Shown: piece after piece, positions 4,983-7,355 of the stretch
Position numbering within the stretch: the stretch's first letter is position 1
Layout of the letters: each line of letters starts with the position of its first letter
Source of the DNA: a virus
Lineage: Duplodnaviria > Heunggongvirae > Uroviricota > Caudoviricetes
Length of the DNA: 7,355 nucleotides
IMG/VR virus record: IMGVR_UViG_2579778804_000005
Direction: 5' to 3' (one strand)
The notes under the pieces: model-generated
Database searches by the model: none
Told to the model about the DNA's origin: nothing
Seen by the model: only the letters and a program-made list of their open reading frames with translations
Program-made: the position numbers and the translations under genes

Positions 4983-5258
4983 TTAGAGAGTGGAATAGAT
5001 GAATTCTACTTTATCCAGTCTTTTGAGATTGAATGTAGAGAAAGATAATTCTTTAATCTCTATAACACCGAAATTTGATAGCTGTCTAAGCCAGAATTTT
5101 AAACCATCTTCAGAGCAAGCTGCTCGATGTAACACATCGCTATATTTTAGCGGTGTTGGCTTTCCTTTATAGAGGTAAGCAAGTGTTTCGTAGATGCGTT
5201 TTCCTGTGTCATTACACTGAATTCTGTCTACTTGATTTTTTACTAAATATTGAATCAT
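4983..5258 (-). CDS. Hypothetical protein (91 aa)
   Basis: ATG at 5258-5256 with a strong AAGGAGG ribosome-binding site that overlaps the stop codon of the upstream replication-initiator-like gene, suggesting coupled expression. TAA at 4985-4983. Confidence 0.55.
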   Translation of the reverse strand: MIQYLVKNQVDRIQCNDTGKRIYETLAYLYKGKPTPLKYSDVLHRAACSEDGLKFWLRQLSNFGVIEIKELSFSTFNLKRLDKVEFIYSTL

Positions 5259-5269
5259 AACCCTCCTTA

Positions 5270-5923
5270 TTAAAATGGAATATCAAAGTCATCATACACA
5301 TTTGGGTAATGCTTAGAAAAATATGCCTCAATACCATTTGGTAGCTTTAACCTGTGCTTATAGGCTAACGATGTTGCAAATTCTATAAAGGATGCTCCTG
5401 CTGTTCTGGTGTTTTTCTGCTGGCAGATAAGAGAGGCAAAATTCTCTAACACATCCTCCTCATTATCATTAGCTACCTTTTCATTTGATGAAACAGGTGT
5501 TTCTTCCGTCTCCCACGGCAAAGGCGCATCCCAATCATCAAGAACATCAAAAGAAGACTCTTTATTATCTTCTGTAGGGGGAAGCTGTTCAGGAACAGCT
5601 TTAACGGTAGCTTCTTGTTGTGTTTTGGCTTCTTGTCTAGCTTCTTCTTGTGGAATATCTACCACTTGATAGACATTAGAACTTCCTGGTCGTGCATCTT
5701 TTATAATTAATCCCATTTCGAGCAATTTCTTAACCCTTTCCTCTGCTGCTCTTGGTGTTATGCCAAAAACATCGCCTATCTTAGCGTAAGAGGGAAATGC
5801 ACGATCAAACCCTTTCAGATAGCAGTAAAGGTTTTTAGCACTATCTGTAAATTTATGCCCGTTTACTTGGCTTATTTTTAGAATCCACATAGGAACTTTT
5901 ACAAATTGTTCTTCATTAATCAT
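5270..5923 (-). CDS. Replication-initiator / replisome-organiser-like protein (217 aa): N-terminal winged-HTH, acidic linker, C-terminal DDFDIPF tail
   Basis: ATG at 5923-5921 with an AAGGAGA ribosome-binding site. The N-terminus (VPMWILKIS...YAKIGDVFGITPRAAEERVKKLLEMGLI) is typical of HTH replication-initiator and phage replisome-organiser N-domains. The middle is acidic and Pro/Glu-rich. The last residues NVYDDFDIPF were checked codon by codon at 5302-5273, with TAA at 5272-5270. Confidence 0.6.
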   Translation of the reverse strand: MINEEQFVKVPMWILKISQVNGHKFTDSAKNLYCYLKGFDRAFPSYAKIGDVFGITPRAAEERVKKLLEMGLIIKDARPGSSNVYQVVDIPQEEARQEAKTQQEATVKAVPEQLPPTEDNKESSFDVLDDWDAPLPWETEETPVSSNEKVANDNEEDVLENFASLICQQKNTRTAGASFIEFATSLAYKHRLKLPNGIEAYFSKHYPNVYDDFDIPF

Positions 5924-5974: not shown

Positions 5975-6142
5975 TCACTTACCCTTTTTTTGTTTGATGT
6001 TCTCTGCTGCTTCAGTAATGATTTCTAACATCAAATCACTGACCATAATTTGCCTTTTCTTGGCTTCAGCAAATAAAACCTTGAAGATTTCAGGGTCAAC
6101 GTGTAGGTAAGTACGCGGAATTGGTTTCTTGGTTTCGCTCAT
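5975..6142 (-). CDS. Ribbon-helix-helix (CopG/Arc/MetJ-type) DNA-binding protein, 55 aa, absent from the ORF track
   Basis: Manual translation: ATG at 6142-6140 with an AAGGAGA ribosome-binding site, TGA at 5977-5975. Product MSETKKPIPRTYLHVDPEIFKVLFAEAKKRQIMVSDLMLEIITEAAENIKQKKGK shows the classic strand-helix-helix pattern (TYLHVDPEIF... then ...SDLMLEII). It lies 19 nt after the 62-aa gene and 51 nt before the replication gene. Confidence 0.6.
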   Translation of the reverse strand: MSETKKPIPRTYLHVDPEIFKVLFAEAKKRQIMVSDLMLEIITEAAENIKQKKGK

Positions 6143-6161
6143 AGTTTTCTCCTTCTATTCT

Positions 6162-6350
6162 TTACTCTGTTTCAGATTCTTTTTCATTTTTTCTTAGTTC
6201 ATCAATAATCTTGAGTGCTTCATTGAAGCAAGCTGCTCGCTCTGGATAACCTCGACTCCTTGCCATATTACGATTCATTACTACTTGATGGCGTGTAAGC
6301 TCACCTTTTTTAAATGCCTCCACGACGTGTTCTGATGTAAACCATTTCAT
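6162..6350 (-). CDS. Hypothetical small protein (62 aa), first gene of the regulatory/replication operon
   Basis: ATG at 6350-6348 with an AAGGAG ribosome-binding site 6 nt upstream; TAA at 6164-6162. It lies downstream of a predicted sigma70-type promoter. Basic/acidic composition, no confident motif. Confidence 0.5.
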   Translation of the reverse strand: MKWFTSEHVVEAFKKGELTRHQVVMNRNMARSRGYPERAACFNEALKIIDELRKNEKESETE

Positions 6351-6460
6351 AAAAAACTCCTTATTCAGTTAAAAGAAAAACACCTTGCAAGCCTGACGGC
6401 TTCAAAGTGCATTGATTTTGATTATTTAGAGAAGAATGTTTTTCTGTCCCTCTAATACCT

Positions 6461-6489
6461 ATTATTACATATAAAGAAACATTTGTCAA
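6461..6489 (-). promoter_or_regulatory. Sigma70/SigA-type promoter with an extended -10, reading toward the 62-aa, RHH and replication genes
   Basis: On the minus strand: TTGACA (-35, plus 6489-6484), a 17-nt spacer, then TGtAATAAT (extended -10, plus 6469-6461). The predicted transcript start is about 100 nt upstream of the ATG at 6350. Confidence 0.45.
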
Positions 6490-6581
6490 TACCTTTTCAC
6501 AAAAAATCTGATCTTTTTCATGCACTTACATTTTTTCTTAGCTATTCGTGCTCTTCTGTGTAGTGCTATTCTTCATTATTG

Positions 6582-6610
6582 TCTAAAACGCTCTAAAACG
6601 CGTTCTAACG
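6582..6610. repeat. Tandem direct repeats (iteron-like): two perfect TCTAAAACG copies at 10-bp period plus a degenerate third
   Basis: tctaaaacg at 6582-6590 and 6592-6600, then ttctaacg at 6603-6610. The junction forms the palindrome aacgcgtt (6597-6604). Located in non-coding DNA upstream of the promoter. Confidence 0.5.
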
Positions 6611-7015
6611 AGATTTTGATAAAAGCAATACATTCCCTTATCTAATGGCTGTTTAGCTCGCCAGAGGCTTATTTAAGGGGCTTATTTTGTATTTGTTAGG
6701 TATATGAAAAGGTAATGGCAGATATAAGATAGAGAGTCACTTTATAAAACGTTCTGTAAAGCCCTGTAGTGAGATTATATATGTAGGCAATGCGTTTCCA
6801 TTCCCTACCCTGCTTAATGCTGTTAGAGAAGCATTTAGACCCCTTATTTTTAATTAATTAAAGTATCCTCTGTACCTTGTGTTATGAAACACCTCTGAAT
6901 CCTTCATAAAACACATTATGACGCAAAGAACACTTTTCTAAGGTGATTCCCTTCCTGAATGCTGTTTCTTGCGTCAGAGAGCTACACAGAGCTTATAAAG
7001 CTATTATTAATAATA

Positions 7016-7076
7016 AAGTAGATAAAGTAAGATAAGTAAGTAAGATAACTAAGATAGATAAGATTAATAAGATCAG
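7016..7076. repeat. Low-complexity GATAAG/TAAGAT-rich tract
   Basis: About 60 bp built almost entirely from GATA(A/G) and TAAG units (gataaagtaagataagtaagtaagataactaagatagataagattaataagatc). No ORF on either strand. Confidence 0.5.
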
Positions 7077-7117
7077 AATTCTCTTTCGGTGTCGCCTCTG
7101 GCTTTTCCACCGAAAAC

Positions 7118-7274
7118 AATTACACGACTACAGAAGTAGGAAGTGGAATTGTATTGAGGCTTAGTGAAATTACACGAGGAAAGCAGAGTGTAATTGAGCT
7201 TTAGCCGCTCTCTCTTCGAGTAATTACACAACTACAGAGAATAACGAGAGTTATTAAATGTAGGAAGTGGAATT
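7118..7274. repeat. Cluster of AATTACAC sites (three direct, one inverted) and a perfect 15-bp direct repeat
   Basis: AATTACAC at 7118-7125, 7168-7175 and 7222-7229; inverted copy GTGTAATT at 7188-7195. GTAGGAAGTGGAATT occurs at 7136-7150 and 7260-7274. The two long units (7118-7150, 7222-7274) differ by a ~20-bp insertion that contains a small ataac/gttat inverted repeat. Confidence 0.5.
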
Positions 7275-7341
7275 AAGAGGTAGAGAGAGTTAACACATAA
7301 GCAATCAGTATGATTGGTTAGGTGATTACTCTTCTGCGCAC

Positions 7342-7355
7342 CTGTCTCTTATACA
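7342..7355. other. Likely Tn5 mosaic-end (Nextera-type) adapter remnant, not biological sequence
   Basis: The final 14 nt, ctgtctcttataca, match exactly the first 14 nt of the mosaic-end adapter read-through sequence CTGTCTCTTATACACATCT. The match sits at the very end of the window. It fits the synthetic mosaic end, not the natural IS50 outside end (CTGACTCTTATACACAAGT) or inside end (CTGTCTCTTGATCAGATCT). Confidence 0.75.

Follow-up and report, generated by a model that had tools for sequence, protein, structure and literature searches.

The window analysed here, a stretch of 7,355 nucleotides, matches E. coli chromosomal DNA at 100% identity and belongs to an island of about 12 kb that is integrated between an integrase gene and tRNA-Thr; of 5426 complete E. 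coli genomes, 721 (~13%) contain related DNA. Across the island, a tail-fibre/baseplate-like gene is followed by a gene for a 609-aa tape-measure-like protein, a major capsid gene whose product matches Phage_cap_E at 7e-14, small open reading frames, the operon of an initiator-like gene and about 3 kb that is free of genes. The features of the window that concern us are these:

4983..5258, minus strand: an open reading frame of 91 aa, taken from the list of open reading frames, 11 nt downstream of the initiator gene.
5270..5923, minus strand (stop codon 5270-5272): the 217-aa initiator-like gene, from the same list, matched by phrog_270 at 8.6e-11 and weakly by Pfam HTH_36.
5660..5923, minus strand: the N-terminal winged-HTH DNA-binding domain of this protein (aa 1-88), which appears to be a swappable specificity module, from matches to HTH_36/HTH_24 and from iteron co-variation.
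5462..5659, minus strand: an acidic, Pro-rich, disordered linker (aa 89-154), from AF2 pLDDT and composition.
5489..5554, minus strand: an invariant acidic/aromatic motif, SFDVLDDWDAPLPWETEETPVS, within the linker (aa 124-145), found in alignment A1 with all N-terminal types.
5300..5461, minus strand: a small C-terminal helical domain (aa 155-208).
5273..5299, minus strand: the SSB-Ct-like tip VYDDFDIPF, from the sequence itself, its conservation and an identical 7-mer in bona fide SSBs.
5975..6350, minus strand: the two small upstream genes of the initiator operon, read as open reading frames of 62 aa (6162-6350) and 55 aa (5975-6142).
6461..6489, minus strand: a sigma-70-like promoter, TTGACA-17-TGnAATAAT, upstream of the operon, identified purely by its match to the consensus (11/12 positions, with an extended -10 TG).
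6990..7341, no strand: the start of the ~3 kb non-coding origin region, with an AT-rich GATAAG-type stretch and AATTACAC / GTAGGAAGTGGAATT repeats.

The 55-aa protein encoded upstream of the initiator is 100% identical to gp095 of phage muut, which stands directly upstream of muut's own homologue of the initiator; the 91-aa frame downstream has no match in Pfam or PHROG. An earlier note on this DNA had called the 217-aa protein replication-initiator-like, and this identity is supported by both its relatives and its surroundings. PHROG families for replication initiation, for O-like and for DnaD-like proteins all match its N-terminal half, the best being the phrog_270 match given above, followed by phrog_391 at 7.2e-8 and the further initiator families 8540 and 678; the Pfam match to HTH_36 is weak (20 bits against a cut-off of 25), and HTH_36 and HTH_24 both fall on aa 26-73. 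Turning to the surroundings, the repeat families D7 and D19 lie at the start of the origin region, together with a degenerate iteron copy at L001 19071-19093 (window 7071-7093); the main iteron arrays follow shortly after the window stops (L001 19565-19974), about 1.6 kb upstream of the initiator gene. These arrays consist of 22-23 bp direct repeats, with 5-6 copies of a 23-bp repeat, and adjoin an AT-rich stretch. An Rfam scan of the 3 kb non-coding region returned the flanking tRNA only. In all nine loci with enough flanking DNA, which are related to one another and so do not count as nine independent events, the initiator's N-terminal type agrees with the kind of repeat array bordering the AT-rich stretch:

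N-terminal type A (that of the window's initiator): ACAGAATTCTGT-type repeats, 3/3 loci.
N-terminal type B: GGTAGGTCAYWGTGARCTA repeats, 5/5 loci.
N-terminal type C: AATACTATAATTA repeats, 1/1 locus.

Repeats spaced at 22 bp, again with an AT-rich stretch, are also found in the element that encodes the homologue P0142. Because initiator families match the protein, and because the iterons co-vary with its DNA-binding domain, the 217-aa protein most likely serves the island as its origin-binding initiator.

The island's only phage relatives are Stephanstirmvirinae of about 150 kb (Phapecoctavirus, Justusliebigvirus), with which it has a gene cassette in common as well as homologues of tail and capsid proteins. 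Compared with phage muut, the tail protein is 61% identical and the tape-measure-like protein 28-53% identical, and aa 1-118 of the initiator are 83-89% identical to a Phapecoctavirus protein. With an integrase, a tRNA att-site, a small size and a partial, helper-related set of virion genes, the island looks like a satellite of lytic Stephanstirmvirinae myoviruses and is presumably induced and packaged as such; no description of such a satellite family was found in the literature searched. The plasmid setting suggested by the plasmid-maintenance assay of the earlier note thus gives way to an integrated, phage-satellite-like island at tRNA-Thr. Among the island's proteins there is no match to a helicase, primase or polymerase in Pfam or PHROG, and no SSB according to our own HMM, and an island that lacks genes for helicase, primase and SSB must recruit such functions from elsewhere.

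The Stephanstirmvirinae also carry a homologue of a different build. P0014 (327 aa) consists of two winged HTHs and a C-terminal endonuclease domain; its first winged HTH is 89% identical to the DNA-binding domain of the initiator, its second matches the satellite domain of type C, and its endonuclease domain is matched by phrog_681 at 1.6e-18 and by Pfam MUG113, a family that we take to belong to the GIY-YIG clan, at 1.6e-4. A fusion of satellite-initiator DNA-binding domains to an endonuclease mirrors Odn of phage ICP1, which copies the DNA-binding domain of PLE RepA to cut the satellite's origin (PMC8263062). The architecture of P0014 therefore provides independent support both for reading the island as a satellite and for an origin-binding role of the initiator's N-terminal domain.

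Beyond that domain, the initiator is built from parts that are peculiar to its family. The same C-terminal region is fused to at least four unrelated-looking N-terminal types, with a fifth in L009. The linker (aa 89-154) has 18 D+E, 5 K+R and 7 P among its 66 residues, and AF2 pLDDT falls below 50 at aa 86-153, indicating disorder; the full-length model is of low quality (mean pLDDT 50), owing to a shallow alignment and to heterogeneity among the N-terminal domains, and is read here for order and disorder only. Within the linker, SFDVLDDWDAPLPWETEETPVS is possibly a second docking motif, judging from its invariance; it is absent from P0142, and the second lineage of homologues described below has related PDW[DF] and LPW motifs. 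When aa 145-217 are modelled separately with AF2, a four-helix domain of ~55 aa is predicted with confidence (aa ~155-212, pLDDT 84.7), followed by the last five residues as coil (pLDDT ~66) right after a short helix of the folded domain, so that the spacer between domain and tip amounts to only about five residues. A structural-neighbour search with the helical domain gave no significant match. Exhaustive HMMER searching with the C-terminal module recovered the family itself and P0142 only, that is, two clusters at 50% identity among 1.84 billion proteins; two further matches were rejected as low-complexity repeats, and a word-indexed search returned fragments of the same family only. The suggestion that the tip is preceded by an acidic, Pro/Glu-rich region like the SSB linker thus holds only loosely: an acidic, Pro-rich, disordered stretch does exist at aa 89-154, but a folded helical domain separates it from the tip. 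The linker of E. coli SSB is, moreover, Gly/Gln/Pro-rich rather than acidic.

Read again from the sequence, window positions 5273-5302 on the minus strand are AAT GTG TAT GAT GAC TTT GAT ATT CCA TTT, followed by TAA at 5270-5272, and their translation, N V Y D D F D I P F and stop, is the C-terminus of the 217-aa frame (5270-5923, minus strand). Both the DDFDIPF ending and its place at 5270-5302, as first reported, are therefore correct. Phe217 directly precedes the stop codon and so is a terminal Phe with a free carboxylate; Pro occupies position -2 and Ile position -3 (IPF), as in SSB-Ct, and the acidic residues D211, D212 and D214 precede the hydrophobic end, with Phe at -5 where E. coli SSB has Asp. 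DDFDIPF is thus an acidic C-terminal tip of the [IL]PF kind that ends bacterial SSB. Pockets for SSB-Ct are reported to read the side chain of the C-terminal Phe, its carboxylate and, through a basic rim, the acidic residues that precede it (PMC5872125), and all three of these features are found in the tip of the initiator. SSB-Ct is described as a nine-residue acidic tip that docks more than 14-17 genome-maintenance proteins (PMC5872125; PMC7145534), or at least 17 (PMC7145534; PMC10018359), and the binding of partners by SSB is ascribed to the tip and not to the linker (PMC7145534).

Coincidence is not a serious explanation of this likeness, because by our own estimates, made from typical amino-acid frequencies, a DIPF ending is expected in only about 5e-6 of random proteins (and DFDIPF in about 1e-8). 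When IMG/VR DNA was scanned for an exact [DE]DFDIPF followed by a stop, 26 loci were found, comprising 11 OB-fold SSBs, 11 members of the initiator family and 4 other proteins. For two of the 11 tip-bearing SSBs, Pfam confirmed membership of PF00436 (9e-36 and 3.5e-26), and all 11 match an SSB HMM that we built ourselves, a test that is partly circular since the HMM had been trained on some of them. They include phage SSBs and one from an enterobacterium (Tatumella), ending ...PPMDFDDDFDIPF. The resemblance to the bacterial SSB tip that had been noticed at the outset is consequently closer than was claimed: at the level of sequence, DDFDIPF is a naturally occurring SSB tip and not merely similar to one, because genuine OB-fold SSBs end in the exact peptide. 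A relaxed genome-wide pattern, [DE]DFD[ILMF]PF followed by a stop, gave 96 frame ends against about 39 expected by chance (again our own estimate); many of these frames are short and spurious, and only a few large, Pfam-classified proteins were used.

The tip also ends replication proteins of mobile elements that are unrelated to the initiator, namely two primase-DnaB-type helicases, a DUF927/Cch helicase and a DUF2800 PD-(D/E)XK nuclease, and it is carried by a small phage protein family, phrog_23504 (78 aa), and a 61-aa relative, neither of which is a DNA-binding protein. Its spread over unrelated replication proteins fits a portable docking motif, as far as can be judged from their sequences. 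A motif that is the same as in SSB would also serve a decoy, however, in which the tip competes with SSB for the pockets of its partners and blocks host or helper DNA metabolism instead of recruiting a replisome; nucleases such as ExoI and RecJ, RecQ, or helper replication would then be the targets, and interference by the satellite or protection of its DNA the outcome. The 78-aa and 61-aa proteins fit the part of such a competitor, and interference with the helper is common among satellites, as the PLE literature attests. In the initiators, however, the tip is always fused through a long linker to an origin-binding domain, which makes it a tether and not a soluble competitor, and the single tip of each initiator would have to outcompete an abundant, tetrameric SSB. 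We regard inhibition as an unlikely purpose for the tip of the initiator, and return to recruitment by docking.

The earlier note had named the absence of the motif from homologues as an outcome that would count against it, and the homologues turn out to keep the tip, even where their C-terminal domains are not homologous. Among the best 120 homologues, which are closely related and do not count as independent events, 116 end in Y[DE]DFD[IL]PF (in one of these, YYDFDIPF), although their N-terminal domains are as little as 47% identical. Of the remaining four, two are phage proteins whose C-terminal half is wholly different, and two look truncated or frameshifted. Variation is seen within the tip as D/E at -7 and I/L at -3, with LPF in eight proteins, and I/L alternation at -3 occurs in natural SSB tips too. 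The C-terminal domain of P0142 is 50% identical to that of the initiator and ends YDDFEIPF; searching with P0142 led in turn to a second lineage of 17 proteins from Enterobacter, Klebsiella and Buttiauxella. Here 13 of the 17 end in IPF (FDPIPF, FDTIPF, FDSIPF, FDEIPF, FGEIPF, FEIPF or DFDIPF), three end in RFEISF and one is apparently frameshifted, so that a terminal Phe is present in 16/17 proteins of this lineage as it is in 116/120 of the close homologues. P0147, P0154, P0155, P0158, P0159 and P0161 all end in the tip while their C-terminal domains, once the tip is removed, have no BLASTP similarity to that of the initiator. P0147 belongs to an island of Enterobacter whose genes run in the order seen in the E. 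coli island, and P0160 to small Klebsiella islands with defence genes such as Hachiman. With only nine distinct alleles and few synonymous changes, a test of codons for purifying selection at the tip had too little power.

A tip that stays in place while both flanking domains are swapped is, so far as sequence comparison goes, the signature of a self-contained docking motif. It also bears on whether the tip acts within its own protein, either in autoinhibition, by folding onto the helical domain or the basic DNA-binding surface, or as a protease signal that sets the level of the initiator. The tails of SSB and of T7 gp2.5 do fold back on their own DNA-binding domains in this way; the tip of the initiator abuts a folded domain and is modelled with intermediate confidence (~66), its hydrophobic F, I and F could pack in cis, and initiators such as lambda O are controlled by proteases. 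However, persistence on mutually dissimilar C-terminal domains speaks against co-evolved packing, plain electrostatic autoinhibition has no need of an exact IPF-COOH, and the tip is unlike the known C-terminal tags for ClpX or Lon. An intramolecular or turnover function has, in our view, only a slim chance of being correct.

The second lineage also raises the matter of what the docking partner is. Many of its tips are non-acidic at -4 (FDPIPF, FDTIPF, FGEIPF), departing there from the SSB consensus, and the three RFEISF endings have Ser for Pro at -2, the same change as in ssb-113, which weakens partner binding of E. coli SSB. These departures would be understandable if the end, written as ...F-[DE]-x-IPF, bound a dedicated protein of the element or its helper, such as a helper primase/helicase or polymerase, through a pocket outside the SSB interactome, with the likeness to SSB-Ct being convergent; T7 gp4 and gp2.5, whose acidic tails end in Phe, would be the parallel. 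An aromatic residue at -5 or -6 and an upstream Tyr are better conserved here than in SSBs, and the helper-like phage muut has genes for a primase/helicase and a DNA polymerase of its own and none for a bacterial-type SSB. Against this, true bacterial-type SSBs bear the exact 7-mer, the only acidic, Phe-ended candidate in muut (gp203) ends in DDDSEF and not in IPF, and the tip is kept in islands with very different cargo, including Klebsiella islands without a capsid gene, making a helper-specific partner less likely. We consider convergence on a dedicated partner improbable. The same survey of muut led us to reject another derivation, in which the tip is a copy of the helper phage's own SSB, since muut has no bacterial-type SSB to copy and gp203 ends differently.

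We therefore favour docking of the tip on proteins that interact with SSB. In the model that we propose, the swappable N-terminal winged HTH would bind its cognate iterons beside the AT-rich stretch, as homology and co-variation suggest, and the acidic, disordered linker would join it to the helical domain that ends in ...DDFDIPF-COOH. The terminal Phe and carboxylate of the tip would insert into the SSB-Ct pocket of at least one SSB-interacting replication protein, and the host candidates would be PriA, DnaG primase and the chi subunit of the Pol III clamp loader. All three belong to the SSB interactome, and PriA acts through PriB, DnaT and DnaC/DnaB. An equally possible partner would be a replisome protein of the helper phage whose usual docking site is host SSB; as muut has no bacterial-type SSB, its replisome may itself dock on that of the host. 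Helicase-loading or priming activity would thereby be brought to the melted origin, leading to assembly of a replisome at the origin of the satellite.

The retention of the tip while its neighbouring domains change argues that the island probably borrows a replisome by this route, and we put the probability that the initiator of this satellite-like island recruits a replisome by docking its SSB-like tip on SSB-interacting proteins at roughly 55%. The short spacer of about five residues, in place of a long flexible linker, makes reach into deep pockets uncertain, and Phe for Asp at -5, the non-acidic -4 of many second-lineage tips and the three natural ISF endings also weigh against docking. 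With a lytic helper the host replisome is possibly unavailable, and the partner may then not be a classical SSB-interacting protein of the host. A further point against docking is that the initiator family is confined to the Enterobacteriaceae. It is conceivable, although we would give this rather less than even odds, that the satellites and defence islands with initiators of this family, which lack replisome genes, reach the SSB interactome of the host, or of a helper reliant on host SSB, through the tip of their initiator; the SSB tip would then more broadly be a portable replisome-access peptide, taken up also by unrelated initiators, primase-helicases and nucleases of mobile elements.

Genome maintenance in bacteria has its central docking hub in the C-terminal tip of SSB, which has also been proposed as an antibiotic target. 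If correct, the model would explain how a minimal satellite without replication enzymes replicates, and would provide a bacterial instance of the motif mimicry that is well known from eukaryotic viruses. The element would also be a natural and tractable reporter of which SSB partner suffices to start replication at a defined origin, and inhibitors of SSB-Ct would be predicted to block elements that bear the tip. The value of the locus for experiments is raised further by an apparently undescribed family of Stephanstirmvirinae satellites and by phage proteins in which copies of the satellite's DNA-binding domains are fused to a nuclease.

The arrangement we describe has analogues in several known systems, none of which it matches in full; in function, T7 gp4 and gp2.5, RK2 TrfA and PLE RepA come closest. 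Like SSB-Ct of E. coli (...MDFDDDIPF), the tip is at the extreme C-terminus, has the identical last four residues, DIPF, and has acidic residues upstream together with an aromatic. Unlike SSB, the initiator has no OB fold and no match to PF00436 in a Pfam scan, which returned only weak HTH families; it is predicted to bind double-stranded iterons through a winged HTH, it is not known to form the tetramer of SSB, and its tip follows a folded domain, whereas that of SSB follows a disordered linker of ~56 residues. Judged by these matches it is a non-SSB protein whose N-terminus belongs with the lambda-O-like phage initiators. In phage T7, the gp4 helicase-primase and the gp2.5 SSB both carry acidic, Phe-ended tails that dock on the same replisome partner, and this is a precedent for a tail of the SSB kind on a replication protein that is not an SSB, echoed by the primase-helicases of other mobile elements that end ...DDFDIPF. 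However, tail and partner are both encoded by the phage in T7 and the carrier is a helicase, while here a tip of bacterial-SSB type is found on the initiator of an element without replisome genes. TrfA of plasmid RK2, an iteron-binding initiator with an internal beta-clamp-binding motif of the QL[SD]LF type, is similar in being the initiator of a mobile replicon with a short linear motif that copies a docking peptide of the host replisome and so draws the host's machinery to the origin; but the motif and its target, the beta clamp, are different, and its position is internal and not C-terminal.

Lambda O and O-like proteins (PHROGs 270, 391, 8540 and 678) share the N-terminal winged HTH and the combination of iterons with an AT-rich origin, but the C-terminal half of our initiator is not matched by them, and the island yielded no P-like helicase loader. 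A parallel in lifestyle is RepA of PLE in Vibrio cholerae, likewise the iteron-binding initiator of a satellite that exploits a lytic myovirus and has no replisome of its own (PMC7145576); the initiator described here nevertheless has no RepA_N match (Pfam, E<=0.1), hosts and phages are different, and we found no report of an SSB-like tip on PLE RepA. Nor did we find a precedent in the searchable literature for a copy of SSB-Ct on an initiator, although absence there is not proof of novelty. On the strength of sequence comparison, we would rate recruitment of a replisome through a short motif, and mimicry of a docking hub, as being of a known kind, and the apparent copy of SSB-Ct on an initiator as what is new.

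The first 7,341 nucleotides of the window correspond to positions 12001-19341 of the E. coli chromosome region L001, where the whole island spans roughly 9900-22100 (about 12 kb) at tRNA-Thr. The chromosomal match ends at 7341, and the remaining nucleotides, 7342-7355 (CTGTCTCTTATACA), are the beginning of the Nextera/Tn5 mosaic-end adapter; they are an untrimmed sequencing adapter at the contig end and not biological. Among the island's products are an integrase, a capsid protein of the Phage_cap_E family, a tape-measure-like protein and a tail protein, the latter two being 28-61% identical to proteins of phage muut, and no terminase, portal or replisome genes were found in its approximately 12 kb. 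Similar DNA is present in 721 of the 5426 complete E. coli genomes, and no description of this satellite-like family was found in the literature searched.

Phages of the Stephanstirmvirinae encode a protein of about 330 amino acids that combines two initiator-type winged HTH domains with a C-terminal endonuclease domain, the latter matching phrog_681 (1.6e-18) and Pfam MUG113 (1.6e-4):

L002 6001-6987: two-HTH endonuclease protein of phage Mt1B1_P17 (QNJ49226; protein P0014)
L030 31258-32256: two-HTH endonuclease protein of phage muut, gp094

Of its two HTH domains, the first shares 89% identity with residues 1-118 of the window protein and the second matches the N-terminus of another satellite variant, L009. 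Directly upstream of this nuclease-fusion gene in muut lies gp095 (81027-81265), which is almost indistinguishable from the 55-aa gene that precedes the initiator gene in the window (5975-6154; 99.6% identical in DNA, 100% in protein). This near-identity suggests that a cassette containing the 55-aa gene was swapped between phage and satellite very recently.

The initiator module appears to be common to different kinds of islands. In Klebsiella variicola (L148 and L149) a related initiator gene, at 10001-10744 and with the tip FFDPIPF, lies downstream of some 1.9 kb of non-coding sequence in small integrase/resolvase islands. Capsid genes are missing from these islands, which carry defence cargo instead, one having HamA with a helicase (Hachiman-like) and the other Peptidase_M78 with Beta_protein. 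The tip itself varies in three proteins from Buttiauxella and related bacteria (P0152, P0153 and P0157), which end in RFEISF rather than RFEIPF; this proline-to-serine replacement at -2 is also the one found in ssb-113, a classical mutation of E. coli. Either the variant is tolerated, or it points to a partner unlike the classical SSB-Ct pockets. The disordered linker contains a second invariant acidic/aromatic motif, which may be another docking motif and to which the PDW[DF] and LPW motifs of the Enterobacter/Klebsiella lineage are related:

Window 5489-5554, minus strand: motif SFDVLDDWDAPLPWETEETPVS, aa 124-145

SSB-type endings of the DDFDIPF kind also occur on unrelated mobile-element proteins, in IMG/VR records (L023, L024), genomes (L050, L127) and the further loci L016 and L144. 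Their bearers are:

Two helicases of the primase-polymerase/DnaB type (626 and 805 aa)
A DUF927/Cch helicase (L050), ending in EDDFDFPF
A DUF2800 PD-(D/E)XK nuclease
A small phage protein family, phrog_23504

A scan of the DNA pieces for six of these loci, L144 not among them, turned up no SSB gene.

Annotated genes are absent from about 3 kb of the island (L001 18350-21256, the first part being window 6350-7341), an unusual length for an element of 12 kb, and the flanking tRNA is the only Rfam family in this stretch. It includes the origin region (L001 19500-20000, just past the window end), a composite of several iteron families of a kind also seen in L006, L008, L009, L010, L013, L015, L018 and L026. 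The family adjoining the AT-rich stretch is that of the island's own initiator type, and the fuller origin regions (L001, L026 and L009) also retain one to three copies of other types' iterons. These foreign iterons might be kept for cross-recognition or as decoys against the phage nuclease, or they might be recombination scars. The HTH-HTH-endonuclease protein of the Stephanstirmvirinae, for its part, looks like an analogue of Odn, the origin-directed nuclease of ICP1, aimed in this reading at the origins of these satellites.
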